Part shown: in pieces, positions 38,907-54,700 of the stretch
How the letters are laid out: each line of letters starts with the position of its first letter
Numbering within the stretch: the first letter of the stretch is position 1
NCBI GenBank assembly: GCA_024234735.1
Contig: JACKNV010000009.1
Coordinates: forward strand, 75,162 to 139,161
Source of the DNA: Pseudomonadales bacterium
GTDB taxonomy: Bacteria; Pseudomonadota; Gammaproteobacteria; Pseudomonadales; Halieaceae
Direction of reading: 5' to 3'
Length of the DNA: 64,000 nucleotides
Translations under genes and position numbers: made by a program
Notes under the pieces: model-generated
What the model was told of the DNA's origin: nothing
Seen by the model: the letters and a program-made list of their open reading frames with translations, nothing else
The model's database searches: none

Positions 38907-38976
38907 CCGGGGCGCCGTATCTAGTGTTGCACCATCCATGCGCGCCGCCCCGGTGCGAGCGAAACCGTGCCGCCGA

Positions 38977-39249: not shown

Positions 39250-39332
39250 GTCCTGCCTTACTCCGCTACCAATAAGTACCACCCCGGCGGGAGGATACCA
39301 TTTTCTTTGCCCGAGGCCTGACGCCGGCGATT

Positions 39333-39742: not shown

Positions 39743-40120
39743 TCACTTGCTCTTGTGGGCAACTTTATGAGCATTCTTTTCCCAGTTTCTGCCATCAAAT
39801 TCCAAGATGCGGATCGATTTGGGTTGGGTATCCAGGCAATTGACGTTTACATCGACACCGTCGGGATTTGAACGCGGCGTGTAAAACGGCTTTACTCCGC
39901 AGACTTTGCAGAAGGTGTGCCTGGCAACGCCGGTATTGAAGGTATAGGTGGACAGCGAATCTTCGCCGCTCAAGAGCGTGAAATTTCGAGCAGGCACAAT
40001 GAGGTGTAGAAACCCCGACTTTGAACAGATCGAACAATTGCAGCGATCGGCCTCGATGGCTTCGGGGGCCTCGACTTCAAAAACAACCGCCCCACAGTGG
40101 CAGCTTCCCTTATATATCAC
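39743..40120 (-). CDS. GFA (glutathione-dependent formaldehyde-activating / CENP-V) family protein
   Basis: ORF track gives 39743-40231. GTG 40120 chosen (VIYKGSCHCGAVVFEV); the start is uncertain. CHCG and CNCSIC zinc motifs are present. Confidence 0.7.
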   Translation of the reverse strand: MIYKGSCHCGAVVFEVEAPEAIEADRCNCSICSKSGFLHLIVPARNFTLLSGEDSLSTYTFNTGVARHTFCKVCGVKPFYTPRSNPDGVDVNVNCLDTQPKSIRILEFDGRNWEKNAHKVAHKSK

Positions 40121-40252
40121 CGAACTCTCCCGTATATCGTGGCGCTTGCCACAGTGGGCAAGCGGCGGCGCGGCCGAAGGCCCGGGTTCTGCCTGCACGA
40201 AAGGCTCCGGAACGTGGCGCACCCACCGCAATACCTCACCACGCCTGATCGC

Positions 40253-40675
40253 TTACATCACGCTCCAGATAGCCAGAACAAAGGCAGCCATAAATGCTGG
40301 TATGACCAACCCACCTATTTTCATCGCGGTATCCGTGGATTTCATACCTTCCATGTCGGAAACCAGAGCAAATTTGCGGCGTTTGAAAACAGCATATACG
40401 CAGACGATATTACAAATTATTGCCAACAGTGCGAAAATGATTTTGTACAGAAACAGGCCCGCCAGGTGGCTCTCATCAAGCATCATGGCCCCGGTAATGA
40501 ACACCGCTGTGAAAGCTGGTATTTCAATCCATATATCCGTTTTGTAATGCATCCTGGCGGCTTTTATGTATGACGCATCATCCCTCATTCCATCAAACTC
40601 AATCGCAAATTCCGCGCCCACCACGCCAATCCAGATGCCGAGCGCGATCAGGTGTATAACCAGAATCAGACTCAT
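40253..40675 (-). CDS. hypothetical membrane protein (4 TM)
   Basis: ORF track gives 40253-40735. Start moved to MSLILVIHLIALGIWIGVVG. No family recognised. Confidence 0.55.
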   Translation of the reverse strand: MSLILVIHLIALGIWIGVVGAEFAIEFDGMRDDASYIKAARMHYKTDIWIEIPAFTAVFITGAMMLDESHLAGLFLYKIIFALLAIICNIVCVYAVFKRRKFALVSDMEGMKSTDTAMKIGGLVIPAFMAAFVLAIWSVM

Positions 40676-40914
40676 CGTATGCCACTCGAGCAAGCAACGC
40701 ACCATGTAGCGTGACAGCCGGGACGGAGTGCACAAAGCAACCCCCGGCTACCTGATACTGCAACCTGTCTGCAATGCACTACTGCACCCTCGTTAACATT
40801 ACTTGCCATGACTCGTTTTTCTCCATCGCTTCAGCCAACGCGTTTGAGCCGAACTCTTTGAGTTTTTCGATGACGCGCAACCGATCTTCGGCCGGGCGAT
40901 GCTGCAACCTCTTG

Positions 40915-41754
40915 TCATGTTCCAGCATAGCCAAACTCCCTGACGCCCTTGCGCCAGAAAACAAGGCCGAAACATGCTGCAACCAACGGTACGGCGAGCC
41001 CGAATTCATCGGCAAACCATACCGTGGCGTCACCCGATTCCGTCATGGGAGAGAAGAATTTCTGCAGGAAGACGTTGTGGCTCATGTGAAAGGTCACGGC
41101 TGGCCACAGGCTATCTGATTTGTAGCGGATGTATGCCATCACACAGGACATCGACACGAGACAGACCGTGATTGCCACGATTTGAAAGGCCAAAGGGGTT
41201 GCGGTGTTGCCGTAAAAACCCAGAAACATGATAGGCCAGTGCCACATGGACCAAAGCAAACCGCTCAGCAACGCCACATGAGTGAAGCCGAGGTTCTCCG
41301 ACAGCGCCGGCACCAGAAGGCCCCGCCACCCGACCTCTTCGCCCAGGACGCCCGGCAGGAGCAGCACAAAACTTACAGTAGCAGTGAGAACAAACCGTAA
41401 CGCGATAATGGATTCATCGGACCACGACTCCAGCATATAACCGGCCCGTATCTCTTCCACAAAACTACTGCCGTACCAGCTCCCCGGGGAAAGACCCCAT
41501 ATCCCGACATATGCAATGGTTGAGTAGGCAAGCGGGATCAGATAGCTCTGACGCTGATACTTCCAGTTGCCCCAACGCCAACCAAGCGAGCTCAACTCAC
41601 GACCGCATACGAGACATGCACCAAAGGTCGCCAATCCGACGGTTAGCATCAACGGACTGGCACTTTGATACCGCAATAGCAACCAAACACCGAGCGGATA
41701 CAGGCCCGCCACGAACAGGATAAACGCCACGACAATACGCCAGGAACTATTCAA
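40915..41754 (-). CDS. CPBP family intramembrane glutamic endopeptidase (CAAX protease-like)
   Basis: 279 aa with a TTG start 2 nt after an attC R' box. EEVGWRG motif and a downstream H...H region. Confidence 0.8.
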   Translation of the reverse strand: MNSSWRIVVAFILFVAGLYPLGVWLLLRYQSASPLMLTVGLATFGACLVCGRELSSLGWRWGNWKYQRQSYLIPLAYSTIAYVGIWGLSPGSWYGSSFVEEIRAGYMLESWSDESIIALRFVLTATVSFVLLLPGVLGEEVGWRGLLVPALSENLGFTHVALLSGLLWSMWHWPIMFLGFYGNTATPLAFQIVAITVCLVSMSCVMAYIRYKSDSLWPAVTFHMSHNVFLQKFFSPMTESGDATVWFADEFGLAVPLVAACFGLVFWRKGVREFGYAGT

Positions 41755-41756
41755 TG

Positions 41757-41848
41757 ACTTAACCCGGAGCAGAGCTTGTTACAGGTGTACAACACCGGGC
41801 ACCTTCTGGCAGCCCGACCAAGGCACAGACGAGGCTCATTTGTTAAAC
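41757..41848 (-). repeat. attC site (92 bp)
   Basis: The minus strand runs from GTTTAAC-AAATGAGC to GCTCCGG-GTTAAGT. R'' overlaps the end of the upstream ORF. TTAAC..GAGC / GCTC..GTTAA pairing was checked by eye. Confidence 0.7.
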
Positions 41849-42090
41849 TCTGTAGGCTTTTCCAGCTCATAAATCGTTTCTGATATTTCTTCCAATCTGG
41901 CTGAATAGTAGGCCTGCGCATCGTATAACCCACGGTTGTAAAAATAGGCCCCTACTTCTTCGGCAAAAAAATCGATCAGGAACTGTGCATCAAAGGTGCC
42001 TATCTCCTGATCCAGTTCCTCTAGAAAATACAGCTTCACCTTCTGTACTATCTGGGTCTTTTCTTCGTCTGTAAATTGAAGCTTCTTCAT
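41836..42090 (-). CDS. DUF2164 family protein
   Basis: 84 aa. IGTFDAQFLIDFFAEEVGAYFYNRGLYDAQ is DUF2164-like. Confidence 0.7.
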   Translation of the reverse strand: MKKLQFTDEEKTQIVQKVKLYFLEELDQEIGTFDAQFLIDFFAEEVGAYFYNRGLYDAQAYYSARLEEISETIYELEKPTEFNK

Positions 42091-42214
42091 ACACTTAACC
42101 TACAGGTGCCAGGCATGCTGTTGCCCGGGTAATACCAGAACACCACAAAGCGGCAAGTAGATCCCTCCAGCCCAACATGTGGTAACAGCGGTAATCTGCA
42201 ACGTAACTGAATAT

Positions 42215-42583
42215 TTATAAGCAGGTTTTTGCGCGATTGATAACTGCCTGATGCTCAGGGCGAACTGGCATAACCTTGAATGGGCTGACATTTGCACCGC
42301 CGGTATTACCCTTTGGCACCAACCCGAACATTGTCTTTGTAGCGGCTCCGACTATACGAACCACCTGACCCGAAAACTCACCAATCCGAGAGTTTCTAAG
42401 CGCCCAGCGAAGCATGAGCACATGAGCTTTAACGTGCCAGAAAGTAGACTCCTGCCCAATGACATGGGCATTCTCATAGTGCTTGAACTCGAGATCGATA
42501 TCTTGCGCTGCACGCGCCTTTTCCGCCAATTCAATTTCCTTCAATACATATGGGGCTATGTTCTTCGAAAAAGCACCAAGCAT
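42215..42583 (-). CDS. DUF3703 family protein
   Basis: 122 aa. HVIGQESTFWHVKAHVLMLRWAL...GQVVRIVGAATKT is DUF3703-like. Confidence 0.65.
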   Translation of the reverse strand: MLGAFSKNIAPYVLKEIELAEKARAAQDIDLEFKHYENAHVIGQESTFWHVKAHVLMLRWALRNSRIGEFSGQVVRIVGAATKTMFGLVPKGNTGGANVSPFKVMPVRPEHQAVINRAKTCL

Positions 42584-42716
42584 CGTCTATCTCCGATATA
42601 CGCGTATACGTCGCGGGCCCAGGCGGATGAACCTGCCAGTAGTGAAATCTCACGCCGCAACATTGCCAGACAATGAAAATGATATTAACGGAATTCATGC
42701 CCTGCGCAAAAGCTTG

Positions 42717-43256
42717 TTAGCAGAGCATTTGCCACGCCGAATAGCCTGCCGTGAAAAATATCATCAGCGCAGTAGTATAAAAGCAGAGCGTGAACCCAAT
42801 GGCCCTCGATGGCGCTCCTTGTTTATAGCCGGCAAAAAAGAGAACACGCCCAACACCAAAGGCCATGGAGGCAATCGGCACCACAGATAGCCATTTAGCC
42901 GGCATCGTCACTGACCAGAAAACGTAGGCAAAGGTAGCCAATACCGTTTGCTCGAGGGTATTCTGTATAAGCGCCTGCAACAACCTTGCTTGCTCGGTGC
43001 CATTAGAAAGCCCGCCACCATCAATATCCTCTGGGGTAAAGAAACGATGCTTCGCCAGGCGACCAACCGAAACAACCAGAAATAGTATCGGGACCAAACA
43101 CCACAAGATAGCCGTGCTTAACCTCTCGAGTAATGGCATACCACCACTAAAACCAAACGGGTTCAGGTAAGCGCCAAATAACAGAATCGACAGCGCCAGT
43201 AAAAAGCCGATTATCATGCCCTTTAATACACCAAGCTGCTTGTTGCTCAAACTCAT
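42717..43256 (-). CDS. MAPEG family membrane protein
   Basis: 179 aa with 4 TM helices. RLAKHRFF...NTLEQ and GRVLFFAGY patterns. Confidence 0.65.
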   Translation of the reverse strand: MSLSNKQLGVLKGMIIGFLLALSILLFGAYLNPFGFSGGMPLLERLSTAILWCLVPILFLVVSVGRLAKHRFFTPEDIDGGGLSNGTEQARLLQALIQNTLEQTVLATFAYVFWSVTMPAKWLSVVPIASMAFGVGRVLFFAGYKQGAPSRAIGFTLCFYTTALMIFFTAGYSAWQMLC

Positions 43257-43312
43257 TGTTTTTCCTTGTGTCTTGCACCTGTCGCTCGCTGCAACATATT
43301 GTTATAACGCAC

Positions 43313-43660
43313 TTACATTTTGACCCCAAAGTAATTGAGCGCCAGGACCATTGCGAAGTAACTTATTATTGTTGCCGCAACAGATGCCGAAAGACTTAGA
43401 TAGAAGCCCCAGCCAAATTTCAGCAACAGTGGCAGCACGACGAACAGCACCAGAGATGGTAATACCAACCAAAAAACGCTGGTTGATAATGCGGAAACTT
43501 TTTCAATATCTTTTGTGTCGATGTATAGCCAGAACATGGCCAAAACCGAAACAAGTGGAACGGATGCCAAGATAGCCCCGATTAAAGAGCTACGTTTAGC
43601 CACCTCTGAAATTGCAACTATGAGAAGCGTTGTAACTGCTATTTTCAATACATAGTACAT
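43313..43660 (-). CDS. DUF3147 family membrane protein
   Basis: 115 aa with 4 TM helices. The N terminus YVLKIAVTTLLIVAISEVAKRSSLIGAILASVPL is typical. Confidence 0.65.
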   Translation of the reverse strand: MYYVLKIAVTTLLIVAISEVAKRSSLIGAILASVPLVSVLAMFWLYIDTKDIEKVSALSTSVFWLVLPSLVLFVVLPLLLKFGWGFYLSLSASVAATIISYFAMVLALNYFGVKM

Positions 43661-43686
43661 GATTATTTAAGCACTATCTCGATCGT

Positions 43687-43920
43687 CTAACGCCATGGTT
43701 TGGAGCTTTTCTCATTGCCATACTTGAATTGACCAGTTGCTTTGGCCATCAGCAATTGTCGATCTGTTCCAAGGCAGTTTGAGGCTTTAGCGGAAAACTT
43801 GGCAGCATCATTTCCCTTGAGCGTGGTAACTACCTTTCCCTTGTAGGATATCTGGACTACCCCGTTCTTTGATTCAGTAAAATCAAATGGACTGTCATCC
43901 AATTTTTTACTGCCCGTCAT
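43687..43920 (-). CDS. hypothetical protein (77 aa)
   Basis: ATGA overlap with the upstream rhodanese fragment. No family recognised. Confidence 0.45.
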   Translation of the reverse strand: MTGSKKLDDSPFDFTESKNGVVQISYKGKVVTTLKGNDAAKFSAKASNCLGTDRQLLMAKATGQFKYGNEKSSKPWR

Positions 43921-44156
43921 TTGTTTACACCAAACACCTGAAGCAGCGTTGCCCTGTTTACACGTCCCCGACTTGTATCCGAAGTCATGATTCTTTTAGG
44001 GATGTTGATTGCTGTGGGGATGTGTTCTATTTCATAGGCGTCTGGGGCACGAGCATCGATTACAATGACGTCGCCAACACTGCTCAATGATTCACTCAGA
44101 TCCCACGAATCGGTTTCGTACCGTAATTTTGTTTTATAGAATTCATGTTGCCTCAT
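43917..44156 (-). pseudogene. truncated rhodanese-domain gene (N-terminal half only)
   Basis: VIVIDARAPDAYEIEHIPTAINIP is the rhodanese N-terminal region. The active-site Cys loop is missing and the reading frame runs into unrelated sequence. Confidence 0.5.
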
Positions 44157-44178
44157 AAAAATCTCCCCTTCTTCTTAC

Positions 44179-44270
44179 ACATAACGCCGTGGTAAGGGGC
44201 AAATTGAACGGTGATTAATTGTCTCGCACAGGCCCGCAGGGCCAGATTGAAATTTACCACCTTCTTATGT
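44179..44270 (-). repeat. attC site (about 92 bp, degenerate R'')
   Basis: The minus strand runs from ACATAAG-AAGGTGGTAA to TTACCACGGC-GTTATGT. The GGTGGTAA/TTACCAC stem is present. R'' carries AAG instead of AAC. Confidence 0.55.
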
Positions 44271-44558
44271 GTTGCTGCCATATTGATGCAGAACCTCGAC
44301 CACTTGCACTTGATAAGACCGATACCATCTAGATTTACCAAGTGATTGCGCCCGCTTATGCTCAGGGTTGTTTTTCCAGGCCTGGATACTTTCCCTATTC
44401 GGCCAATAGGAAATCGCTAATTCACTGTTGCCTTCGGTTGATGAGGTAAACTCGATGCAACCATATTCGTTAATGGCCAGCTCTCTCATCCGATTTGCCA
44501 TATCTGAATATGACTCATCAAGCTTTTTGATCTGGGCCCTGAAGATAACTGCGTACAT
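44265..44558 (-). CDS. antibiotic biosynthesis monooxygenase (ABM) family protein
   Basis: 97 aa. MYAVIFRAQI...GCIEF...ISYWPNRESIQAWKNNPEH is ABM/Dabb-fold like. Confidence 0.7.
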   Translation of the reverse strand: MYAVIFRAQIKKLDESYSDMANRMRELAINEYGCIEFTSSTEGNSELAISYWPNRESIQAWKNNPEHKRAQSLGKSRWYRSYQVQVVEVLHQYGSNT

Positions 44559-44673
44559 TGGTCACCAGGTTTTTTAGGAAAACGCCCAGCACTCGGGCTT
44601 GAATTGCGGAGCAATGAAACTTCGAGGCGACTTTTAACCTGTGCTACCGCTGCTTTTTAAGCATTCCACGCAA

Positions 44674-45123
44674 CTACACCTCCTCAAATTCGACTACAAC
44701 AGCCTTCTGCGATGCGACCAATAGATCGTTGTCGTCTAAACTGCCATCTGGGTTTACTCGAATTTCGTGATACGCGGCATCTTGCGGAAAGGCTGCTAGA
44801 TAATCCGTTAGAAGCTCACTAGTACGACCAGGATCTCTAGCCAGGACCCTGGCCTGATATGCCCCAGAGGAACCCGCGACCAGCAGGGTTACTTGAGGGT
44901 TTGCCTTGACATTGCGCCACCATTGCCCGTGGTCCGAAGTAAAACACCGAATAGAAACACCCCGACGGATGTAGCGCACAGGGGTTGAATAGGCCCTGCC
45001 CGATTTCCTGCCGGTGTATGTAATCAACAACACACTCCGACTCATTAGGGTATGAAATGGAGACTTTAGAAGCATTCCAACTACTATGTTGATTATCTTA
45101 AAAAGTGGCTCAGGAATTTTCAT
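44674..45123 (-). CDS. DUF385/deazaflavin-dependent nitroreductase-like protein
   Basis: ORF track gives 44674-45156. Start moved to MKIPEP, downstream of an R' box at 45139-45145. LLITYTGRKSGRAYSTPVRY...WWRNVKANP is typical of the family. Confidence 0.7.
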   Translation of the reverse strand: MKIPEPLFKIINIVVGMLLKSPFHTLMSRSVLLITYTGRKSGRAYSTPVRYIRRGVSIRCFTSDHGQWWRNVKANPQVTLLVAGSSGAYQARVLARDPGRTSELLTDYLAAFPQDAAYHEIRVNPDGSLDDNDLLVASQKAVVVEFEEV

Positions 45124-45261
45124 GGCTTCGAATGCGACACCTAACAGCCTCACCACAGGCTGACAATAGATTGTGACTGTTTCACCAAAATGCCGAAGGC
45201 ATGTAGAAAATACAAGCTCTTGGCAATCCTATCGCGCCTCGTTTATTGGGCGCAGAATATC

Positions 45262-45645
45262 TCACAGTGGTTCTTCTCCAACTATACAGAATCCATGACC
45301 AAATGGGTCACTACAAAACGCTACAGGAGGGTAACCAGAAATTCTGTGCTCCTCTTCCAATTTTGCACCTGCTGCCAACGCTTTTTTAAGTGTCTCTTCG
45401 AAATCTTTGACGCGGAAATCAATATGCACAGGGGTCCAGTGTCGTTTATATCTCCGAAGGTCATCACTGCCTCTAGCGGGGGAAGTACCCGCCGGTTTTG
45501 CAAGCAGACCAATGGTTGTCCCATCAGCAGAAAGAATGGCAAATCCAGGATGTGGACGCGATGTTTCAATAAAGCCAAAAGCCGCGCCAAAGAACTCCAA
45601 TCCTTCTTCGATAGTTGGAACATCTATCGATACTGTGACTATCAT
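45262..45645 (-). CDS. VOC (glyoxalase/bleomycin resistance) family protein
   Basis: ORF track gives 45262-45756. Start moved to MIVTVSIDV. Has beta-alpha-beta-beta-beta module pattern and C-terminal DPFGHGFCIV. Confidence 0.7.
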   Translation of the reverse strand: MIVTVSIDVPTIEEGLEFFGAAFGFIETSRPHPGFAILSADGTTIGLLAKPAGTSPARGSDDLRRYKRHWTPVHIDFRVKDFEETLKKALAAGAKLEEEHRISGYPPVAFCSDPFGHGFCIVGEEPL

Positions 45646-45876
45646 AATATCTTCGAAGTGGTTAACTGCACGCGGCCTAAAGCCACCTAATGATTCGACA
45701 ACCAGCGCGCGGTACGTGCGCCCGAGCGAAGGGGGCGAGCTGACAGTATTTATCAAGTGCCGTCATTGCCAGGCCCTGTTCGCATGAGTAGTTGGTATAT
45801 GAACTTGCCATACTAGAGATAGCACGCCAGGTATTCTCACTACCAATCAGATAGCGTTTTGTTTCCTGACTGAACT

Positions 45877-45933
45877 ACCTAACGCCTTGCCCACAGCGCC
45901 GCTTGCGCCGTCCGAAGCGGCAATTGGTTAAAT
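45877..45933 (-). repeat. attC site (57 bp)
   Basis: The minus strand reads ATTTAAC-CAATTGCCGCTTCGGACGGCGCAAGCGGCGCTGTGGGCAAGGC-GTTAGGT. R'' contains the stop codon of the upstream cassette ORF. Inner stem is GCCGCTT/AAGCGGC. Confidence 0.75.
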
Positions 45934-46167
45934 GTCATTATCTTCTTCCTTTAGGACCATGCTTACAAGTCTATGAACCAACGGCGAAACTACAATTATT
46001 GTTGGGAATGCGATAACAAACGCGAAAGCCCAGGCTTTTAACCATATATGAATAATATTGCTGACCAAGCCAACATTAAAAATACTTATCACTAAAGACA
46101 TGATGCATGACATTAGCAATGACATAAAAAATGAAAATACGATTCTATGATGTTTGCGATCAATCAT
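45928..46167 (-). CDS. DUF2798 family membrane protein
   Basis: 79 aa with two TM helices. IVFSFFMSLLMSCIMSLVIS...WLKAWAFAFVIAFP is typical. Confidence 0.7.
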   Translation of the reverse strand: MIDRKHHRIVFSFFMSLLMSCIMSLVISIFNVGLVSNIIHIWLKAWAFAFVIAFPTIIVVSPLVHRLVSMVLKEEDNDI

Positions 46168-46195
46168 TTACATCAATTCTCTACGATATCGTGCC

Positions 46196-46291
46196 ATTTA
46201 ACACCGCATTATCGGGTGCAAACGAAGGGAGCATCCCAGCCGGTTCTCCGGCGACATAAATGCCTTATTATGCGGCGCATATGGGTTATAT
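46196..46291 (-). repeat. attC site (about 96 bp)
   Basis: The minus strand runs from ATATAAC-CCATATGCGCCGCATAAT to ATAATGCGGT-GTTAAAT. CCGCATAAT / ATAATGCGG pairing is present. Confidence 0.6.
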
Positions 46292-46305
46292 AGCTACCAG
46301 TTCCC

Positions 46306-46530
46306 TCAATACAGCCGCCTCTTCTCGTCGTCGCTGATCACCACTTCAACTGCCTCAAGTGGAGCGGGAACTTTTCCGTTAGCAGCCATGCTTTCAAGTA
46401 GCGGGGCATCACGCACAACCTCTGCCCTGCCACTAATGCGGAGAGTCTCTCGTTTTCCTGGAACCAAAAAATCAAACCTAAATCGCGCGGACTGAATCAG
46501 TCGTCTAGTAGTGGATTGTAATAGGCACAT
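46306..46530 (-). pseudogene. C-terminal fragment of a PNPOx-like (pyridoxamine 5'-phosphate oxidase family) cassette gene
   Basis: Only about 60 residues (FDFLVPGKRETLRISGRAEVVRDAPLLESMAANGKVP) remain from a family that is usually about 150 aa. It abuts and overlaps the VOC ORF with no attC between them. Confidence 0.55.
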
Positions 46531-46883
46531 AGCTTGTTACCATCGAGGTCACGACAGTAGCCGAACGATGCCCCGTTTCCCCTTTCGCCAAAATTACCTT
46601 CATTGGTACCACCAAGTTCCAGTGCTTTAGCATGAAATGCCGCCGCTTCTTCTTCGGTGTCAAACCCGAAACCGCACATCGTGCCGTTGCCGACGGTAGC
46701 TGCACATTCGTCGCGTGGATTGAGCACGCCAAACATTTCGTTACCACTGCGGTAGATCCGCCCTCCACGCGGTGTCTCAAAAAATGCCGTCCATCCCGCG
46801 AAACCCAACAATTCATCGTAGAATTCCAGAGCCTTTTCCATGTCGTTAGTGCCAACTGTGAAGTACCCAAGTCTGCTAGCCAT
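46497..46883 (-). CDS. VOC (glyoxalase) family protein
   Basis: 128 aa. LGYFTVGTNDMEKALEFYDELLGF...CRDLDGNKL is VOC-like. Confidence 0.75.
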   Translation of the reverse strand: MASRLGYFTVGTNDMEKALEFYDELLGFAGWTAFFETPRGGRIYRSGNEMFGVLNPRDECAATVGNGTMCGFGFDTEEEAAAFHAKALELGGTNEGNFGERGNGASFGYCRDLDGNKLCAYYNPLLDD

Positions 46884-47000
46884 TATTTCCCCCTCTTATA
46901 GAAAACTATTAGGCCATGGACCGTCAGCTACGATCAAAGGCCGATGTTACAAATCAGGTTCTCGAACGCTTTTCTGGATGAATACTCGATACCAACGACC

Positions 47001-47216
47001 TCATAACGCCTTGGCACCGGCGCCGTTTATGGCGTCCGCGTGCTTCGACTTGTTAGCTGATCTGCCTAGTAAATATAGAACCGCACCTGCCCCCATGAAC
47101 AGTGTCATAACAGCAAACCCAGAAAGGTAATCTCTAAAGGCGTTTAAACTTTCTGTATCCATAACTTCAGCTATTTCAGGAGAACATTTTATTGAGAGGA
47201 TTGAGATAACAACCAA
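47001..47216 (-). CDS. hypothetical small membrane protein, possibly 5'-truncated by the IS
   Basis: TTG start 11 nt from the IS end and one TM helix. Weak evidence. Confidence 0.25.
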   Translation of the reverse strand: MVVISILSIKCSPEIAEVMDTESLNAFRDYLSGFAVMTLFMGAGAVLYLLGRSANKSKHADAINGAGAKAL

Positions 47217-47255
47217 TATATTAAATGTGAACTGGCACCACTTTTGTGGACACTT

Positions 47256-48110
47256 TCAGGCGCATAGTAGCGCCACCTCTTCGGGCGATTGATACCCGAT
47301 CTGGGAGTGCAAACGCTCCCTGTTGTAGAACTCAATATACTCAACAATCTTAGCGGTCGCTTCAATTCGATCCCTGAAGGAGACCTGGTGAACGAGTTCC
47401 GCTTTCAGGGTGTGGAAGTAGGATTCCACCGAGGCATTGTCCAGTGGATTCCCCTTCCTGCTCATGCTGCGTGTCAGGCCGGATTCCTCGACCAGTTCAC
47501 GGTAGTCGTGTGCTGCGTATTCAATCCCCTGGTCGGAGTGGAAGATACAGCCATCGCTGACCTTCTCTCGTGACAGGGCCATACGCAGCGCACTCATGGC
47601 AAATTCGGCACTGCGCTGCCTGGCAAACGACCAACCCACGACCTTGCGACTGTACAGATCCAGCACCACCGCGTGATACAGCCAGCCCTTGCCAGTCCGG
47701 ATATAGGTGAAGTCACCCGCCCACAGGACACCCGGAGTCTCAGGGGCCGATTCCCGACCCAGCACATTGCCCGTGGAAGAGTAGAACTCATGCAGGCCTG
47801 GCCGCCATTGATACAGGCCACGGGTCGAGGCTTGCCGACCCATTTCGCGCATCAGGCGCTGCACGCGCCGGCGACTGCAGGAATAGCCCAATCTGCGCAG
47901 GTCCTGGTGCAGCCGTGCTGCACCGTAGGCCCGACGGAAACCCTGGTGACGCTCGTCAATCACGGTCTTTAGCTCCTGGTCGTAGACCCGGCGCGCGCTG
48001 GTGGGCCGGGTCAACCACGCATAGAACCCGCTGGCCGATACCCCGAACAGATTGCACATGCGTCGCACTTTGTACTCATGACGGTTCTCCGCGATAAAAG
48101 CGAAGATCAC
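47256..48110 (-). CDS. IS3-family transposase OrfB (DDE/integrase core)
   Basis: 284 aa. DFTYIRTGKGWLYHAVVLDLYSRKVVGWS...HSDQGIEY...SRKGNPLDNASVESYFHTLKAE carries the DDE motifs. Confidence 0.9.
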   Translation of the reverse strand: MIFAFIAENRHEYKVRRMCNLFGVSASGFYAWLTRPTSARRVYDQELKTVIDERHQGFRRAYGAARLHQDLRRLGYSCSRRRVQRLMREMGRQASTRGLYQWRPGLHEFYSSTGNVLGRESAPETPGVLWAGDFTYIRTGKGWLYHAVVLDLYSRKVVGWSFARQRSAEFAMSALRMALSREKVSDGCIFHSDQGIEYAAHDYRELVEESGLTRSMSRKGNPLDNASVESYFHTLKAELVHQVSFRDRIEATAKIVEYIEFYNRERLHSQIGYQSPEEVALLCA

Positions 48111-48478
48111 TTGTTTCTTGTCTCGAAGAACCGTTGCGCCTTTTTTAGCAGTTCAAGTTCCTCATCGCGATTCTTCAGGGCTTTTTCCAACTGCTGAATT
48201 CGCTTCTGAGCCTTGAGTAACTCCGCGTCTTTCTCTACGCGGGGATCAGGCCTGCTGGCTTTGCGCTTCGGGGATGGTTTGGAAGGCTTCATGTGTTTGT
48301 TTTCCCTCAACTCACCTCGGCGGTGCTCCATGCACCATCGGTACAGCATGACGGGATGTAGCCCCAATGATTCTGCTACGTCCTTGGCCTTAACGCCAGG
48401 GTGGCTGGCCAACATAACGGCCTGAAGTTTGTAGGCCAGGGTATAACGATCGTAGTTACGCTTCCGGGTTTGCCCCAT
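48107..48478 (-). CDS. IS3-family transposase OrfA (HTH)
   Basis: 123 aa with an HTH N terminus and a leucine-zipper-like C terminus. It overlaps orfB by 4 nt, so a frameshift fusion is possible. Confidence 0.88.
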   Translation of the reverse strand: MGQTRKRNYDRYTLAYKLQAVMLASHPGVKAKDVAESLGLHPVMLYRWCMEHRRGELRENKHMKPSKPSPKRKASRPDPRVEKDAELLKAQKRIQQLEKALKNRDEELELLKKAQRFFETRNK

Positions 48479-48596
48479 GTCGCGGACCTCTTTGATAAAA
48501 CGGTTGATGACCGTCCATCAAAGTGGTGCTAGTTCACTGACCCGGCGAAGCTGCGGCAGTCCGAGGCAGCTTGCTGCCGGTGCGTGCCTAAGCTTG

Positions 48597-49058
48597 TTAT
48601 GTTGCAACTGTCTGCTCAACAATAGGTAGTAACCTAGAATCAATTACTGCAGCAGCTCGATGACCAATGCCAGCCATACATTCTGGGTCACTAGCAAAAT
48701 CAAAGAAAGTTTGAATAGAGTTTTGTTTCACCAACATGACAAAATCCCATTGTTCATCACTAGGGCCTATAAAGTAATCGCCACCCTCTCCAATAAAAAG
48801 CAAGCTACCACCAGATTGCTCTAGAAACGGCAGCGTATGATCTATATATTTTTGAAATGCTTCTTTTCCTGATATAGGTGATTCAGGCGACAATTCTGGA
48901 TTTTTGGAGTAGTCCGCTATTGCTCGAAAACGTAGTAAATTAAGCATAACGACCTCCCCAGAGATATTCCTCTGAAAAAGTTTTGTACCTGATTCTTGCG
49001 TAGGATCTAAATAATTCGATTTCATATTTTTAACTGCACTAATTTTTATAAGCAACAT
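48597..49058 (-). CDS. DUF1330 family protein
   Basis: 153 aa (alternative start ATG 49025). VVMLNLLRFR...FIGPSDEQWDFVMLVKQNSIQTFFDF is DUF1330-like. Confidence 0.7.
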   Translation of the reverse strand: MLLIKISAVKNMKSNYLDPTQESGTKLFQRNISGEVVMLNLLRFRAIADYSKNPELSPESPISGKEAFQKYIDHTLPFLEQSGGSLLFIGEGGDYFIGPSDEQWDFVMLVKQNSIQTFFDFASDPECMAGIGHRAAAVIDSRLLPIVEQTVAT

Positions 49059-49063
49059 AAAGC

Positions 49064-49114
49064 CGCCAACAAGGGCGCGCTATAAGCGCGCCCTGCTGCT
49101 TGGCCTTGTTACGC
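49064..49114 (-). repeat. attC site (about 51 bp)
   Basis: The minus strand reads GCGTAAC-AAGGCCAAGCAGCAGGGCGCGC-TTATA-GCGCGCCCTT-GTTGGCG. R'' contains the antitoxin stop codon. Confidence 0.65.
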
Positions 49115-49390
49115 GGCTGATACATTGATTTTGACGCCAAGAGAATGAAGAACTTTTTGGACTGTTTCATATCTTGGCTTTGCCCCAGGAGCAAATGCCT
49201 TATATAGGCTCTCCCGTCCCAAGCCTGACTCTTGTGCTATCGCAGACATGCCTCGTGCCTTGGCGACATGCCCAATGGCGGCAAGAAATACACTGGGGTC
49301 ATCATCCTCAAGCGCAGCGGAAAGATATTCTGCGATAGTTTCCTCACTATCGAGATATGCGCTTGGATCAAATTCTGTGACTTTAACCAT
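49109..49390 (-). CDS. addiction-module antidote protein (HTH, HigA-like antitoxin)
   Basis: 93 aa. FDPSAYLDSEETIAEYLSAALEDDDP...ARGMSAIAQESGLGRESLYKA is typical. It lies 5 nt downstream of the toxin gene. Confidence 0.85.
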   Translation of the reverse strand: MVKVTEFDPSAYLDSEETIAEYLSAALEDDDPSVFLAAIGHVAKARGMSAIAQESGLGRESLYKAFAPGAKPRYETVQKVLHSLGVKINVSAA

Positions 49391-49395
49391 ATCAG

Positions 49396-49695
49396 TTACT
49401 CCGCTCTTAATTCGGACAAAATCTGCCGAGCACGAGCTATATCCTTGCCTTGGCTCGATTTATCTCCTCCACATAGGAGAAGCACCACCAGACCAGCTTT
49501 ACGGGTGAAATAAATCCGATAGCCTGGCCCAAAATGTATTCTGAGTTCATGCAGGCCGGAACCAAGAGACTTGGAATCACCAGTATTACCTTGGCGCAGT
49601 GATTCGATTCGAGCCAGTATTCTCGCGATGGCTTTTCGGTCCCTTAGCTTTGAGAGCCATTTCGAGAAGACATCAGTCTGCTGAACTTGATACAT
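49396..49695 (-). CDS. RelE/ParE-superfamily addiction-module killer toxin
   Basis: 99 aa. FSKWLSKLRDRKAIARILARIESLRQGNTGDSKSLGSGLHELRIHFGPGYRIYF is typical. Confidence 0.85.
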   Translation of the reverse strand: MYQVQQTDVFSKWLSKLRDRKAIARILARIESLRQGNTGDSKSLGSGLHELRIHFGPGYRIYFTRKAGLVVLLLCGGDKSSQGKDIARARQILSELRAE

Positions 49696-49701
49696 TTAGC
49701 A

Positions 49702-49730
49702 AGTGTATCCTATTAGATACACTCATGCAA
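49702..49730 (-). promoter_or_regulatory. candidate TA-cassette promoter with overlapping palindromic operator
   Basis: On the minus strand TTGCAT (49730-49725), a 17-nt spacer, then TACACT (49707-49702). The palindrome AGTGTATC-CTATTA-GATACACT (49702-49723) covers the spacer and -10. The ATG lies 6 nt after the -10, implying a leaderless transcript. Confidence 0.5.
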
Positions 49731-49753
49731 TTGGTGTGATGCTTGCAGAGGCC

Positions 49754-49814
49754 GCCAAACGCTCACAGTTGGGGCGGCCGGCACGGCCGTCCCGACAATC
49801 TGTGCTTGTTAAGT
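49754..49814 (-). repeat. attC site (61 bp)
   Basis: The minus strand reads ACTTAAC-AAGCACAGATTG...CAACTGTGAGC-GTTTGGC. CAATCTGTG / CAA-CTGTG pairing leaves one extrahelical base. R'' contains the upstream stop codon. Confidence 0.75.
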
Positions 49815-50156
49815 GTGTTTGGCACGAATCCACCGTATAGAGATGTAGAACACAGAAATTGATGCGGCTACCATGCTCACGTTACCCAATAAGACTATGA
49901 AGTTGTAATAATTTGATGGGTACTCTATTAGAACTTCCGTGTCGCCTTCACTATAGGACCACCTCAGACCAGGTAGAAACCATAAACCGATTTGACAAGC
50001 CACATATACGAAAGCGAAAAAACCCAGTGCCAGACCAGAGTTCTCTTTGCTTTTTGCATACAACCAGAATCCAGATAATGAAAGAACTATAAATGCGCTC
50101 ACATAACCATAAAGATTTGAGTATACGGACAACGCAGACAGGTTCATAACGGACAC
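49809..50156 (-). CDS. hypothetical membrane protein (115 aa, 3-4 TM)
   Basis: Cassette-sized ORF bounded by attC sites on both sides. No family recognised. Confidence 0.55.
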   Translation of the reverse strand: MSVMNLSALSVYSNLYGYVSAFIVLSLSGFWLYAKSKENSGLALGFFAFVYVACQIGLWFLPGLRWSYSEGDTEVLIEYPSNYYNFIVLLGNVSMVAASISVFYISIRWIRAKHT

Positions 50157-50253
50157 TTAACGCCTGAGCTCAGGTGCGTTTGAGGCGACGCACGCTTTTG
50201 CGGTAGCAAAAGTGGGTGGCGGGTCAAACGTCACCTGCAGCGATTTGTTAGGC
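50155..50253 (-). repeat. attC site (about 99 bp)
   Basis: The minus strand runs from GCCTAAC-AAATCGCTGCAGGTGACGTTTGA to TCAAACGCACCTGAGCTCAGGC-GTTAAGT. Both cores fit the consensus and the long arms pair. My hand count differs from the ORF track by 1 nt in this area. Confidence 0.8.
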
Positions 50254-51027
50254 GCGTGTTTCACCTGAGCCGATGACCTGCTGGAGACTTCCCCACTGTT
50301 CAGCATCAATACCCTTTATAAGCATCCACAGCGCCAAAGATAGCTCAGCCACAAGAGCAGGGAGCAAAATGATCGACCCAAGGCCTGAGATTGAGTCAAT
50401 GGCGAGAATAGCGCCGAAACTGTTGGCCAGATAGCACGCACCAGCAAGGATCATTAATCGTCCAATCAGTTTAGGGAGAAAACCGCAGCGCACAATCAAT
50501 ATGCCAAGCGTTACGCAGTAAATTCCGAAAAACACGAGCGCAACATGGTAGCCAAAAGCATGAGACCGCAACGAGTGATAGGCGATCTCTTGAACCTGGC
50601 TTGAACCCAGAGCCTCTGACGTGGAAGCACCATTAAGCCAAAGCAGCGCGTCCATATGATTGAGCAAATTCGTGCCTGAGATCGCGGCCATTACTAGCCG
50701 CAAACACGCCGCGAACAATGCCAGCAAAAATCCCACGGACCTCAAGACGACGAAGAATATGACCGCCAAGGCGACATCACACACGAGCATTAGCAGTTCA
50801 GCGGACAAGCCGGCCCTATACAAATGTTGTGAACCCAGTATGTTCGCTGCTGTAGCAGAAGCATCTCCCGCAACAATAAGTTGAGAGCGCACGAAAACTT
50901 CAGAAAATAGTCCGGCAGCAATGATGAAGAGGTAGAGAGCGCCTCCGGCACGTACGTATGATGGTACGAAGTGATCAAGCTTCGGGTCAGTCAACGATTC
51001 TTTCCCCTCTGTGTTGATTGGAGCCAT
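50248..51027 (-). CDS. DUF4386 family membrane protein (first cassette)
   Basis: 259 aa, polytopic. YVRAGGALYLFIIAAGLFSEVFVRSQLIV is DUF4386-like. The start lies 13 nt from the GCCTAAC junction. Confidence 0.7.
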   Translation of the reverse strand: MAPINTEGKESLTDPKLDHFVPSYVRAGGALYLFIIAAGLFSEVFVRSQLIVAGDASATAANILGSQHLYRAGLSAELLMLVCDVALAVIFFVVLRSVGFLLALFAACLRLVMAAISGTNLLNHMDALLWLNGASTSEALGSSQVQEIAYHSLRSHAFGYHVALVFFGIYCVTLGILIVRCGFLPKLIGRLMILAGACYLANSFGAILAIDSISGLGSIILLPALVAELSLALWMLIKGIDAEQWGSLQQVIGSGETRA

Positions 51028-51040
51028 TGTACCGGCGCGC

Positions 51041-51110
51041 GCCTAACAGCTACTTCGTTGGACCAAAGCAGAAATACGAATTGTGTATTCCTGAAACACT
51101 CCACACGCCC
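51041..51110 (-). other. attI / first-cassette junction region (candidate)
   Basis: GCCTAAC at 51041-51047 equals GTTAGGC on the cassette strand, the expected composite core at the head of the array. The extent of attI to the right is a guess. Confidence 0.45.
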
Positions 51111-51299
51111 CCTATTCCAAAAAAGCTCAATAAATCAACGCGCTAGCCTTTCGACTACATTTCCCTCTCCCCGGCACAGTTCTTATGTCAGTGTGCGCCG
51201 CCGGGAGACGGGCCCCACTTTCCATGCCGGCCGCCAAAGCATATCCCATATTTTCAGACGCTTACATTTTTTCGTTTGGTGCACATTAGACTATTTCCC

Positions 51300-51707
51300 A
51301 TGAAAAACGGTCATCGAGTTGATAGCCTCGGGCCGGCCATGGTTTGCTTGTTGACAGCAACCCCAGAGACCGTCATTCATGGACGATGTACGAGTCCCCA
51401 TTCCCGCCGGGTCTACCCGTTTCATGGATCACCTCGCCGTTCACGCCACTGTCGCCCCGTCGACACAACGGACGGCGCTGAACGCCCTGATGTACCTGTA
51501 CACAAATTACTTCGGGCGCGATCCACAAGCGCTGAATTTCAGCTACGCCAAAACCACGCGCAGGCTGCCGACAGTACCTACGCACAAGGTTCCGACATAC
51601 ACGCCATTAAGAAACTGCTGGGGCACGACGACGTCACCACCACCGAGATTTACACCCACGTGCTCAACCGCGGGGCCATGGGTGTGATCAGCCCGGTAGA
51701 CGGTTAG
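51300..51707 (+). pseudogene. intI: integron integrase (intI) remnant
   Basis: One frame reads [34 protein letters not shown]...[10 protein letters not shown], which is the IntI N-terminal domain, and is preceded by an in-frame TGA. It then jumps to another frame reading [37 protein letters not shown], the IntI C terminus with the catalytic Tyr. About 170 central residues are absent. Confidence 0.8.
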
Positions 51708-51727
51708 CGCGAAAATTGCGCCGCTAT

Positions 51728-51763
51728 TTGACAGCCTCCAATATACTGTATATTCATACAGTA
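51728..51763 (+). promoter_or_regulatory. dnaE2 promoter candidate with overlapping LexA (SOS) box
   Basis: TTGACA (51728-51733), a 17-nt spacer, then TATTCA (51751-51756). The LexA box TACTGTATATTCATACAGTA (51744-51763) covers the -10 and ends 1 nt before ATG 51765. No Shine-Dalgarno sequence is present. Confidence 0.8.
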
Positions 51764-51764
51764 T

Positions 51765-54700
51765 ATGTCAAGCTACGCCGAACTCCACTGCCTCAGCTGC
51801 TACAGCTTCCTGCGCGGCGCCTCCCACCCCCACGAGCTGGTGGAGCGGGCGGCGCAGTTGGGCTACGCCGCCCTGGCCATCACCGACGAGTGCTCCCTGG
51901 CGGGCATCGTCAAGGCCCACGTGGCGGCCAAGGAGCACGGCCTCAAGCTGCTGGTGGGCAGCGAGTTCAACCTCGAAGAGGGTATCAGGCTGGTGGCGCT
52001 GGCGCCGTCGCGGGCGGCCTACAGCGAGCTGTCCGGGTTGATCAGCCTGGCCCGGCGGCGCAGCCCCAAGGGCGAGTACCGCGCCGCACTGCGGGACGTG
52101 ATCTTTCATCTCAAGCGCTGCCTGCTGATCTGGCTGCCGCGGGATGACGACGAGGCCGGCCGCGCCTGGGGCCGGCAGCTCGCCCGCCTGTGCGCGGGCC
52201 GGGTGTGGCTGGGCATCACGCACCTGCTGGGCAACAACGAGGTGGTGCGCTACCTCACCCTGCACCGCATGGCCGGTGAGCTGGGCATACCCCTGGTGGC
52301 CTGCGGCAACGTGCAGATGCACGAGGCGCAGCGCAAGCCCCTGCACGACGTGTTCAGCGCCCTGCGCCACAACACCAGCATCGGCCAGCTGGGGCGGCGG
52401 CGGCTGGCCAACAGCCAGCAGCACCTGCGCGCCTGCGGCAGGCTGCGGCAGCTCTACCCGCCGGCCCTGCTGGCGCAGACGCTGCACATCGCCGCGCTGT
52501 GCGATTTCAGCCTGGACGAGCTGCGCTACGAGTACCCCGAGGAGGTGGTGCCCGCCGGGCACACGGCCAACAGCTACCTGCGCCGCCTGGTGGCCGCGGG
52601 CGGCGCCCTGCGCTGGCCGCAGGGCGTGCCGGTGGATATCCAGCAGCGCATCGACGGGGAGCTGGCGCTTATCGAAGAGCTGCACTACGAGTACTACTTC
52701 CTCACCGTGTACGACATCGTGCGCTTCGCGCGCTCCCGCGCCATCCTCTGCCAGGGGCGCGGCTCGGCGGCCAACTCGGTGGTGTGCTACTGCCTGTTCA
52801 TCACCGAGGTTTCCCCCGAGCAGATCTCCCTGCTCTTCGAGCGCTTCATCTCGAAGGAGCGCGACGAGCCGCCGGATATCGACGTGGATTTCGAACACGA
52901 GCGCCGCGAGGAGGTGATCCAGTACATCTACGCCAAATACACCCGCAAGCGCGCCGCCCTGGCGGCCACCGTCATCACCTACCGCTCCCGCAGCGCGGTG
53001 CGCGACGTGGGCCGGGCCCTGGGGCTGGACCCGGTGTTCGTCGACGACCTGGCCAAATCCCTGGCCTGGTGGGATCGCACCGCGGATCTCGCCAGGCGCT
53101 TTGCGGAGCAGGGTGTGGCCCAGCACAGCCGGCAGGCGGAGCTGTTTTACACCCTGGTGCAGCAGATCCTCGGCTTTCCCCGCCACCTGTCCCAGCACGT
53201 GGGCGGCTTCGTCATCACCCGCAGCCCCATCTCCGCCCTGGTGCCGGTGGAGAACGCCAGCATGGCCGAGCGCACCGTCATCCAGTGGGACAAGGAGGAC
53301 ATCGAGGCCCTGGGCCTGCTCAAGGTGGACATCCTGGCGCTGGGCATGCTGTCGGCCATCCGCAAGAGCCTGCAGCTGGTGCAGCGCTACTGCCCCGCCA
53401 TCAAAACCGTGAGCGACGTGCCGAAGGAGGATGCGGCCACCTACCGCATGCTGCAGGCGGCCGACACCGTGGGGGTGTTCCAGATCGAGTCCCGCGCGCA
53501 GATGTCCATGCTGCCCCGCCTGAAACCCGAGAACTTCTACGACCTGGTGATCGAGATCGCCATCGTCCGCCCCGGCCCCATCCAGGGCGACATGGTGCAC
53601 CCCTACCTGCGGCGCAAGCAGGGGCTGGAGCCGGTCACCTATCCCAGCGAGGCCATCAGGTCGGTGCTGGAGCGCACCCTGGGGGTACCCATTTTCCAAG
53701 AGCAGGTGATCCGCCTGGCCATGGTGGCGGCGGGTTTTTCCGGCGGCGAGGCCGACCAGCTGCGCCGCGCCATCGCCAACTGGGGGCGCAACAGCAAGCT
53801 GCTCGGCTTCGAGCAGCAGCTCACCCGCGGCATGATGGCGCGCGGCTACGACGAGGCCTTCGCCCGCCGCCTGTTCGAGCAGATCAAGGGCTTTGCCGGC
53901 TACGGCTTCCCCGAGTCCCACTCCGCCAGTTTCGCCCTGCTGGCCTATATCTCCGCCTGGCTCAAGTGCCACCACCCGGCGGCCTTCTACACCGGCCTGC
54001 TCAACAGCCAGCCCATGGGGTTTTACAGCCCCTCGCAGCTCATCCAGGATGCTCGCCGCCACGGCGTCACCGTGCTGCCCATCGACGTCAACCACAGCGG
54101 CTGGGACCACCTGTTACTCGACGCCCGCGAGGCCGGGCTGCAACAGCCCCCCCTGCGCCTGGGCTTGCGTCTGGTAAAAGGCCTCGGCGAAGAGGCTGCG
54201 CAGCGCATCGCCCAGGCGCGCCAACGGGGGCCGTTCCGCCAGATCAGCAATCTGCGCCAGCGGGCGCAACTGGGCAAGCGCGACCTGGAGGCGCTGGCGG
54301 GCGCCGACGCCCTGGCCTCCCTGAGCGGCCACCGCCACCAGTCCCAGTGGCAGATCATGGCGCTGGAGCAGGCGCGCCCGCTGCTGCAGGATGAGCAGCG
54401 CGCCAGCGCCGGTTATTTCGACGACGGCATCCAGCTGCCCGCGCCCGCCGTGGCGGAAGAGGTACTGGCGGACTACCGCGCCACCGGCCTCACCCTGCGG
54501 GCCCACCCCATGAGCCTGCTGCGCGACCGGCCACCCTTCGACCGCTGCAAGCGCCACGCCGACCTGGCGGCGCTGGGCAACAACCGCTTCGTGCGCATCG
54601 CCGGGCTGGTTACCTGCCGCCAGCGCCCGGGCAGCGCATCGGGGGTGCTGTTTCTCACCCTGGAGGATGAAACCGGCAACAGCAATATCGTGGTGTGGCA

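Follow-up and report, generated by a model that had tools for sequence, protein, structure and literature searches.

The window analyzed here is a 64,000-nucleotide stretch of genomic DNA from a bacterium assigned to the Halieaceae because its DnaE2 protein is 78–86% identical to those of Halioglobus and Halieaceae genomes; our subject is the block of small genes that, within it, separates imuB from dnaE2 in the SOS mutagenesis locus imuA-imuB-dnaE2. We consider it very probable (about 0.88) that this block is what remains of a sedentary chromosomal integron that was already seated between imuB and dnaE2 in an ancestor of the Halioglobus/Haliea group of Halieaceae. By descent it is a degraded complete integron in situ, with an integrase (intI) pseudogene and a putative attI core still attached to the cassette array. 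Mechanistically the element is a standard integron, now dead; what is surprising is how intI has been conserved in position before dnaE2, apparently in one operon with it.

Integrase remnant, putative attI and attC sites

Measured in 1-kb windows, the GC content falls from about 0.67 in the flanks (0.66–0.70) to 0.44–0.55 within approximately 39.5–51.5 kb, confirming the AT-richer DNA that a preliminary description of the window, made from the sequence letters, had reported from about 39.7 kb; a shallower slope, from 0.65 to 0.58, begins at about 36.5 kb. The more than 20 short, unrelated minus-strand open reading frames (ORFs) listed in that description were also recovered: positions 39743–51027 hold 21 ORFs together with two that belong to an insertion sequence (IS), every one of them on the minus strand. 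Its interpretation of the block as a decayed integron is supported by matches to both an integron-integrase hidden Markov model (HMM) and an attC covariance model (Table 1).

The integrase remnant lies on the plus strand, opposite to the array, which diverges from it as had been described. Two matches to TIGR02249 ("integron integrase"), the best HMM for both fragments, fall in two reading frames within 51276–51707, where an integrase had been anticipated at about 51300–51707; one covers profile positions 48–104 (E = 1.6e-8) and the other positions 271–313 of 315 (E = 5.3e-15). With 55.6 and 34.3 bits, both fragments fall below the cutoff of 265, and neither covers any of profile positions 105–270. 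Likewise, only residues ~50–118 and 288–328 could be mapped when six full-length IntI proteins were searched onto the window by tblastn. The gene as it stands comprises a start codon at 51379, residues ~1–15 and ~60–118 in one frame, residues ~288–328 in another and a stop codon at 51705–51707; two internal deletions have removed about 170 codons, among them those for the catalytic core and the IntI-specific insertion. The window thus contains fragments only, and not a complete functional intI with its RHRY residues and IntI-specific insertion. The C-terminal 40 amino acids are 72–78% identical to Halieaceae IntI proteins and, as judged from these matches, the ancestor of the remnant was an integron integrase and neither XerC/D nor a phage integrase. 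No other intI was found in the 64 kb by TIGR02249 profile search or tblastn.

Integrons are reportedly SOS-regulated (Guerin 2009; Cambray 2011), with a LexA box that overlaps the intI promoter. A LexA box is present over this promoter in all 14 intact relatives examined; relatives have a perfect copy (CTGTAT…ATACAG) about 20 nt ahead of the ATG of intI, a place taken in the window by GTTTGCTTGTTGACAG. The window box is degenerate, and a motif scan of the region found no LexA box with one mismatch near the intI promoter. Loss of the LexA box at the intI promoter reportedly correlates with intI inactivation (Cambray et al. 2011, PMC3108266); the lost box and dead intI of the window fit this correlation. 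On the array side of the pseudogene, the junction between attI and the first cassette was placed by alignment, attI having no general sequence model: a GTTAGGC core at 51041–51047 aligns with TAACAGCTA of L009 (the loci used for comparison are designated by L and a number).

To locate attC sites, a covariance model (R1) was built from 16 sites in the arrays of relatives only (L068, L011, L018 and L029) and run with filters off; a second, iterated model (R2) included the window's own sites. R1 returned seven matches in the window, all on the minus strand between 44179 and 50253 (E = 1.8e-10 to 0.23), and nothing else with E < 0.5 in the 64 kb. Applied to eight loci new to it, R1 gave 40 matches, all on the array side of intI. 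At E < 1 it gave zero matches in ten loci, eight of which are without integron features (L010, L012, L013, L022, L028, L048, L063 and L066); the other two are L007, which extends just 1.6 kb upstream of dnaE2, and L051, which we read as a fully eroded array. In a 34-site alignment, six of the six L-helix pairs carry compensatory changes, and L-helix cells are paired in 91.7% of cases versus 28–37% with the partners slid. The R box is conserved in sequence, and the sites therefore display the defining attC architecture. Two window sites share 90–91% identity with sites in L068 and L011 but adjoin unrelated genes, as is typical of lineage-specific attC families.

The inverted repeats of the preliminary description, worded as RYYYAAC…GTTRRRY, fared less evenly. 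Taken literally, the pattern occurs five times window-wide with no clear enrichment, and is uninformative because real R boxes are looser; as attC sites, the repeats stand by virtue of the seven model matches. The stop codons that had been placed inside R'' are there for at least seven ORFs (DUF4386, orf115, antitoxin, orf153, DUF2798, ABM and MAPEG). Hairpin-stability scans requiring AAC…GTT (two heuristics) failed to discriminate, because the GC-rich flanks fold as stably as attC. An Rfam scan of the window gave no match at the gathering threshold, and a tRNA scan gave no tRNA integration site.

The array is depleted of complete sites. The 11.3 kb of the window array hold seven attC, versus approximately one per 330–450 bp in intact relatives, and about one third of the window ORFs still have one. 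Half-sites are left over, and the motifs GCGTTA and TAACAA are enriched on the minus strand: of their minus-strand occurrences in the window, eight of 11 and 10 of 12, respectively, lie within 41.4–50.3 kb. Among them are R'' boxes at the stop codons of MAPEG and DUF2164, as well as a site at 41757–41784 that has collapsed. In the distal AT-rich part (39743–44178), R'' and R' half-sites remain with no complete attC.

A generic horizontally acquired island, or an assembly chimera, with no integron involved would also be AT-rich and could carry an IS, but we regard this as extremely improbable. It would have to accommodate an integron-integrase-specific HMM match, attC sites with covariation, an attI-like core and intact homologous integrons at the same locus in relatives; furthermore, both junctions were recovered, with the same structure across them, in many independent assemblies.

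Table 1 Features of the integron remnant and of the surrounding imuA-imuB-dnaE2 genes in the window
Feature	Position	Strand	Evidence and remarks
LexA box CTGT-N8-ACAG	31992–32007		Upstream of imuA
imuA	32040–32780	+	NF033429, 204 bits (cutoff 150)
imuB, maximal ORF	34159–35718	+	Pfam IMS, 30.6 bits (cutoff 23.2); tblastn
Perfect palindrome, 16-nt arms	34197–34236		Holds LexA box 34209–34224, just upstream of likely imuB start
Distal block, nine ORFs	35726–39623	-	Probably old cassettes with ameliorated GC; GST, DUF442-like/BLH phosphatase, PPOX, 77-aa lipoprotein, P-loop kinase, ArsN1 acetyltransferase, GDT1, DUF167
AT-rich distal cassettes without complete attC	39743–44178	-	GFA, orf160, CPBP, DUF2164, DUF3703, MAPEG, orf115b, orf77, rhodanese fragment; Pfam
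attC, 92 nt	44179–44270	-	After ABM cassette; R'' AAC to AAG; R1 E = 0.027, R2 E = 1.2e-8
attC, 57 nt	45877–45933	-	After DUF2798 cassette; canonical AAC…GTT; R1 E = 6.1e-5
attC, 78 nt	46196–46273	-	After VOC and PPOX-fragment cassette; R'' AAC to AAT; R1 E = 0.23, R2 E = 0.0036
attC, 58 nt	47001–47058	-	End of IS-truncated cassette gene; R1 E = 0.02, R2 E = 2.8e-7
IS3-family element, 1309 bp	47228–48536	-	Pfam HTH_Tnp_1, rve, rve_2/3, HTH_21
IS orfB	47256–48110	-	
IS orfA	48107–48478	-	
attC 5' half (R''–L'') of orf153 cassette	48537–48602	-	Cut by IS; ACATAACAAGCTTAGGC… continues into IS inverted repeat
attC, 60 nt	49055–49114	-	After toxin–antitoxin cassette (49109–49695); R' GTT to TTT; R1 E = 2.4e-7; 90% identical to L068:1072–1131
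attC, 61 nt	49754–49814	-	After orf115 cassette; R1 E = 3.8e-5
attC, 99 nt	50155–50253	-	After first cassette, DUF4386 (50248–51027); R1 E = 1.8e-10; 91% identical to L011:3991–4089
attI core and first-cassette junction (putative)	51040–51053	-	Minus strand …GCTGTTAGGCG…; alignment-based
Decayed LexA box, intI promoter	51342–51357		Alignment with L068, L011 and L009
intI pseudogene	51379–51707	+	TIGR02249 matches; tblastn with six full-length IntI proteins
dnaE2 promoter-like region	51728–51761	+	TTGACA 51728–51733; LexA box 51746–51761
dnaE2 (error-prone DNA polymerase, ImuC)	51765–54866	+	NF004225, 1401 bits (cutoff 939)

Extent of the array and its present state

The preliminary description had drawn the array from 39743 to 51707. 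The AT-rich part of this range was upheld and its left boundary was not, as the array most likely runs on to 35726, next to the imuB stop. The GC content at third codon positions (GC3) rises with distance from attI towards imuB (Spearman rho = 0.85, p = 5e-9), from ~0.27–0.53 over the first 7 kb and 0.48–0.65 at 8–11 kb to 0.70–0.85 in the genes at 35726–39623, the host genes lying at 0.83–0.93. The leftmost genes of this distal block abut the imuB stop codon (35718). Because imuB directly abuts dnaE2 in most gammaproteobacteria, we take the interval to be wholly inserted; the entire 16 kb is probably integron-derived, and the oldest cassettes, ameliorated towards host composition, would lie farthest from attI.

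Alternatively, the array may end at about 39.7 kb, leaving 35726–39623 as ordinary chromosomal genes between imuB and the array. We regard this as unlikely, even though the segment has no attC matches and no convincing half-sites, and its GC content (0.53–0.66, mostly ≥0.59) is near-native. In addition, the DUF442-like and PPOX genes have orthologs beside imuB in L051, the closest relative, and these share ~70% amino acid identity, a value within the span of the core neighbours (64% for the C-terminal 100 amino acids of ImuB and 86% for DnaE2). Besides the close juxtaposition of imuB and dnaE2 in other gammaproteobacteria, what speaks against ordinary chromosomal genes is that the nine ORFs are short, functionally unrelated and on the same strand as the cassettes, that their GC3 continues the monotonic gradient, and that a 55% homolog of the kinase lies inside the attC-bounded array of L011.

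Several observations weigh against the block being an integron remnant throughout, or against its being inert. Neither R1 nor R2 detected an attC left of 44179 (R2 gave no further sites over 35.7–44.2 kb), where cassette status is drawn from strand, size, composition, half-sites and the one homolog in L011, and the attC model leans towards Halieaceae-type sites. The GC gradient could in part reflect different donor genomes instead of age. Mutated AAC/GTT triplets are found in three of the seven window sites versus none of nine non-training sites in relatives, a contrast that is marginal (Fisher p ~0.06). A crude consensus scan found no sigma-70-like cassette promoter (Pc) on the minus strand over 50900–51800. 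Finally, our view is that of a 64-kb window, and a second intact intI elsewhere in the genome is possible.

Were such an integrase, encoded elsewhere in the genome or on a plasmid, to act in trans, the array could still be mobile. Canonical AAC/GTT triplets and good scores are kept in four of the seven attC, the attC types shared with L011 and L068 are still 90–91% identical to them, and some genomes carry Halieaceae-type integrons at a second locus. Nevertheless, we judge continued mobility improbable: six same-strain contigs from different samples are at least 99.9% identical, with no cassette gained, lost or reordered (zero cassette indels), the triplets of the remaining three sites are broken, the distal sites are gone, and the 64 kb contain no further intI. 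The sole structural polymorphism seen among the same-strain sequences is the IS.

A dead integron in place suggests the following course of events. In its working form, as in relatives, intI would have read towards dnaE2 from a promoter covered by a LexA box, attI would have lain just upstream of intI, and cassettes, entering at attI, would have been stacked on the opposite strand back to imuB. In the lineage of the window, two deletions and a frameshift would have cost intI about two-thirds of its coding sequence, and the LexA box of intI would have decayed. With no resident integrase, the attC sites would have drifted, leaving the seven that are recognisable near attI and half-sites further out, and the IS3-family element would have landed in the array at the cost of parts of one attC and one cassette gene. 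The array would now be a frozen set of ~20–28 small accessory genes, expressed, if at all, from Pc-type or internal promoters; the toxin–antitoxin cassette may hinder large deletions. On its own, the window represents an ordinary outcome, a chromosomal integron that is dead and eroding, and it documents stages of that decay well, in the deletions of the integrase, the loss of the LexA box, the drift of attC triplets and the damage by the IS; its GC3 gradient agrees with amelioration in the order in which cassettes were acquired.

The window element resembles the Vibrio cholerae superintegron and other large sedentary integrons in being chromosomal, in the divergence of intI from attI and the array, in its lineage-typical attC sites and toxin–antitoxin cassettes and, as seen in its intact relatives, in the LexA box at the intI promoter; it differs in its much smaller array, its more varied attC sites and its dead integrase. 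IntegronFinder classes a cluster of attC sites without an integron integrase as a CALIN. An automated call of the window would probably be a CALIN, as the attC array has no functional neighbouring integrase; unlike a dispersed attC cluster, the window keeps an intI pseudogene and a putative attI core.

The locus in relatives and the SOS wiring of intI and dnaE2

Comparison with relatives at the imuB/dnaE2 junction, which the preliminary description had proposed, revealed intact intI genes at the same spot with different cassette content. Full-length IntI proteins (391–437 bits, cutoff 265) are encoded in L011, L068 and L009 immediately upstream of dnaE2 and co-oriented with it, with AT-rich attC arrays on the side of intI opposite dnaE2. 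L008 has kept one attC and no intI, and in L051 the space from imuB to dnaE2 is taken up by 9.7 kb of consecutive small minus-strand ORFs, without any attC or intI; tblastn with full-length IntI gave no intI remnants in L051, L008 or L007. Luminiphilus (L012) and more distant genomes have no integron at the imuB–dnaE2 site, and the AT-rich gene block of the window is not conserved in the relatives compared. The history suggested by an insertion between imuB and dnaE2 needs correcting: the integron is no local or strain-specific event and is ancestral at this junction in a subclade of Halieaceae.

A homolog search gave at least 120 clusters of Halieaceae-type IntI (67–100% identity), and genomic context was examined for eight. 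In five, dnaE2 is directly downstream of intI (Haliea sp. E17, Mangrovimicrobium sediminis, Halioglobus japonicus and two metagenome-assembled genomes, MAGs); in the other three the integron has a different location (Congregibacter brevis, and two genomes in which an RND efflux pump gene is close by). Taking all Halieaceae-type cases examined, intI is directly upstream of dnaE2 in nine of 12. In a quick neighbour-joining tree, the IntI proteins of Halieaceae group as a clade. IntI identity follows the divergence of the hosts, at 61–69% inside the clade, 52–55% with Marinobacter and 42–46% with Arenicella, which argues for old, mostly vertical inheritance of a fixed chromosomal locus within the clade. 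Two minor features were noted at these loci. An attC-model match on the plus strand of L009 (5078–5148, E = 3e-5), ~500 bp downstream of dnaE2 and off the array side, may be either a lone attC or another array, and 18-nt tandem repeats occur in L008 (Halioglobus sp. ASO61, 6870–7048) at the GC boundary upstream of its residual AT-rich block.

The chromosomal integrons of Xanthomonas, located downstream of ilvD, stem from a single ancestral acquisition with vertical inheritance of intI, followed by repeated lineage-specific intI inactivation after which the arrays are stable (Colombi et al., bioRxiv 10.1101/2025.06.18.660453). The same pattern is seen across the window, L051, L008, L068 and L011. 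The differences are the host family and the locus, the platform here lying within the imuA-imuB-dnaE2 SOS operon, and the position of intI, co-oriented with and directly before a host SOS gene, in several genomes without an intervening promoter or LexA box.

Two architectures of the intI–dnaE2 junction were distinguished. In five genomes (four Halieaceae and one Arenicella) the gap between intI and dnaE2 is 2–15 nt and a single LexA box is located upstream of intI. This type A arrangement is found in L011, L009, H. japonicus, whose gap is 2 nt, and the P0015 MAG; the P0074 MAG has a type A junction, but an IS now stands between the box and intI. Because the sole LexA box precedes intI, dnaE2 in type A would be SOS-controllable only through the intI promoter (Pint). 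Type B (L068, Haliea sp. E17 and M. sediminis) has a 57–60 nt spacer with TTGAC and a second LexA box 3 nt before the dnaE2 ATG, and the spacer of the window is of this type. A LexA box is also immediately upstream of dnaE2 in L051 and L008; these two and the window are the lineages whose intI is decayed or gone. Small as these numbers are, they would fit intI having become dispensable when dnaE2 came to have a promoter of its own. In L177, a complete MAG chromosome, a DDE transposase gene (3172–4338, within the interval 3130–4501) lies between the Pint LexA box (3130) and intI, dnaE2 follows intI by 2 nt, and an IS66 element is present in the array; the insertion may have uncoupled intI and dnaE2 from SOS control.

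Outside the Halieaceae, the Arenicella locus (L017) consists of a LexA box, intI, a 9-nt gap and dnaE2, with two attC matches upstream. In two Marinobacter genomes, intI is located ~0.5–0.8 kb upstream of a separately boxed imuA-imuB-dnaE2. An obligate linkage in Marinobacter is ruled out by the metagenomic contig L087, whose intI is 99.95% identical to that of L029 and which has no imuABC at that point. The identity between L087 and L029 (Marinobacter salarius R9SW1) holds at 99.95% through intI and ~700 bp downstream and breaks off immediately ahead of the point where the LexA box and imuA-imuB-dnaE2 begin in L029. Of the attI-proximal cassettes of L029, 2.3 kb are likewise missing from L087. 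The mutagenesis cassette is thus present or absent beside an apparently active Marinobacter integron. Among 80 metagenomic IntI loci (≤55% identity), dnaE2 adjoins intI only in L100, plus a doubtful case in L090. In L100 (11–4444), which belongs to a distant IntI clade, dnaE2 precedes intI on the same strand, the reverse of the Halieaceae order; its dnaE2 (40–48% identity) is matched in several frames, and the contig has no gammaproteobacterial-type LexA box. Linked IntI proteins are interleaved with unlinked ones in the quick neighbour-joining tree. The intI–dnaE2 linkage is lineage-specific and not a general property of integrons, and it is possibly recurrent.

From gene order and predicted boxes, we tentatively propose that intI and dnaE2 could form one LexA-controlled transcription unit in the Halieaceae subclade and, apparently independently, in Arenicella. 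The arrangement would be selected or locked in, dnaE2 needing Pint; the window lineage would have lost intI only after dnaE2 had gained its own promoter and LexA box; and the looser juxtapositions in Marinobacter and L100 would point to a recurrent affinity between integrons and imuABC. We give this composite proposal somewhat less than an even chance. Integron recombination and the ImuABC/DnaE2 mutasome, the best known of the evolvability devices induced by SOS, lie fused at one locus across a marine family and, in several genomes, apparently share a single LexA-controlled promoter; on this proposal, DNA damage would induce cassette shuffling and translesion mutagenesis together. Co-transcription and co-induction are directly testable, because the cultured H. 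japonicus, Haliea sp. E17 and M. sediminis carry the intact arrangement. No description of intI–dnaE2 or intI–imuA adjacency was found in the searchable literature; in Vibrio, the presence of imuABC correlates with the chromosome that carries the superintegron, adjacency not being reported (PMC3323433).

Cassette genes, the insertion sequence and the mutagenesis genes

Most of the family labels in the preliminary description were confirmed by Pfam: DUF4386 (E = 6.5e-52), DUF2798, DUF2164, DUF3703, MAPEG, Rce1-like/CPBP, ABM, GFA, two copies of Glyoxalase/VOC, and a Gp49/HigB-like toxin with a HI1420-type antitoxin. Pfam, at E ≤ 0.1, did not bear out two labels, DUF1330 (48597–49058) and DUF3147 (43313–43660); for the latter ORF, precomputed annotation gives PF28289. 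Some ORFs are fragments: the rhodanese ORF spans positions 10–40 of a 102-position profile, and the VOC gene is overlapped by an ORF of 74 aa. Metagenome gene calls place a 166-aa ORF on the plus strand at 45190–45690, overlapping the minus-strand glyoxalase-like ORF at 45262–45756; Pfam backs the latter (Glyoxalase_6, E = 8e-13), and the public call is probably on the wrong strand.

The IS is bounded by 14-bp inverted repeats, TGAACTAGCACCAC and TGAACTGGCACCAC, and no target-site duplication was found around it. The half attC that it cut gave no covariance-model match. A metagenomic allele, L169, is without the IS and has a continuous 150-aa membrane-protein ORF across the insertion point (L169:1–229); from this allele, the 71-aa ORF at 47001–47216 is identified as the 3' remnant of a truncated cassette gene, and the IS as polymorphic. 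The contig L003 ends at the IS boundary, which suggests several copies of the IS in the genome.

The canonical imuA-imuB-dnaE2 unit is described as a LexA-regulated mutagenesis cassette (Erill et al. 2006, as cited in PMC3108266 and PMC3323433). The window has all three genes, each behind a gammaproteobacterial LexA box, but not as a contiguous single operon: 1.4 kb separate imuA from imuB, 16 kb of other genes separate imuB from dnaE2, and there are three separate boxes. The motif ACTGT-N8-ACAGT has exactly three matches in the window versus 0.02 expected, directly upstream of imuA, imuB and dnaE2. With a perfect predicted box of its own, each gene is predicted to have remained under SOS control; the LexA-controlled dnaE2 promoter that had been described next to the platform corresponds to the predicted box ending 3 nt before the ATG. 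By tblastn, ImuB is found upstream of dnaE2 in dozens of gammaproteobacteria. Homologs align to the imuB ORF only from about residue 45, and the true start is probably after the LexA box, near 34250–34290.

The imuA–imuB interval is likewise occupied: a patch of lower GC content (~0.60) holds small ORFs and an OsmC-like gene (32920–33357). Luminiphilus L012 also has OsmC after imuA, and three LexA boxes, and because it shares the split, the separation of imuA and imuB predates the integron clade. At dnaE2, the LexA box ends 3 nt before the ATG and TTGACA lies 12 nt upstream of the box (window 51728–51767; also L051, L068, L172 and L173). An ordinary leader or Shine-Dalgarno sequence does not fit into this space, which suggests that the dnaE2 mRNA would be leaderless or have a very short leader, or that the start codon is mis-set.

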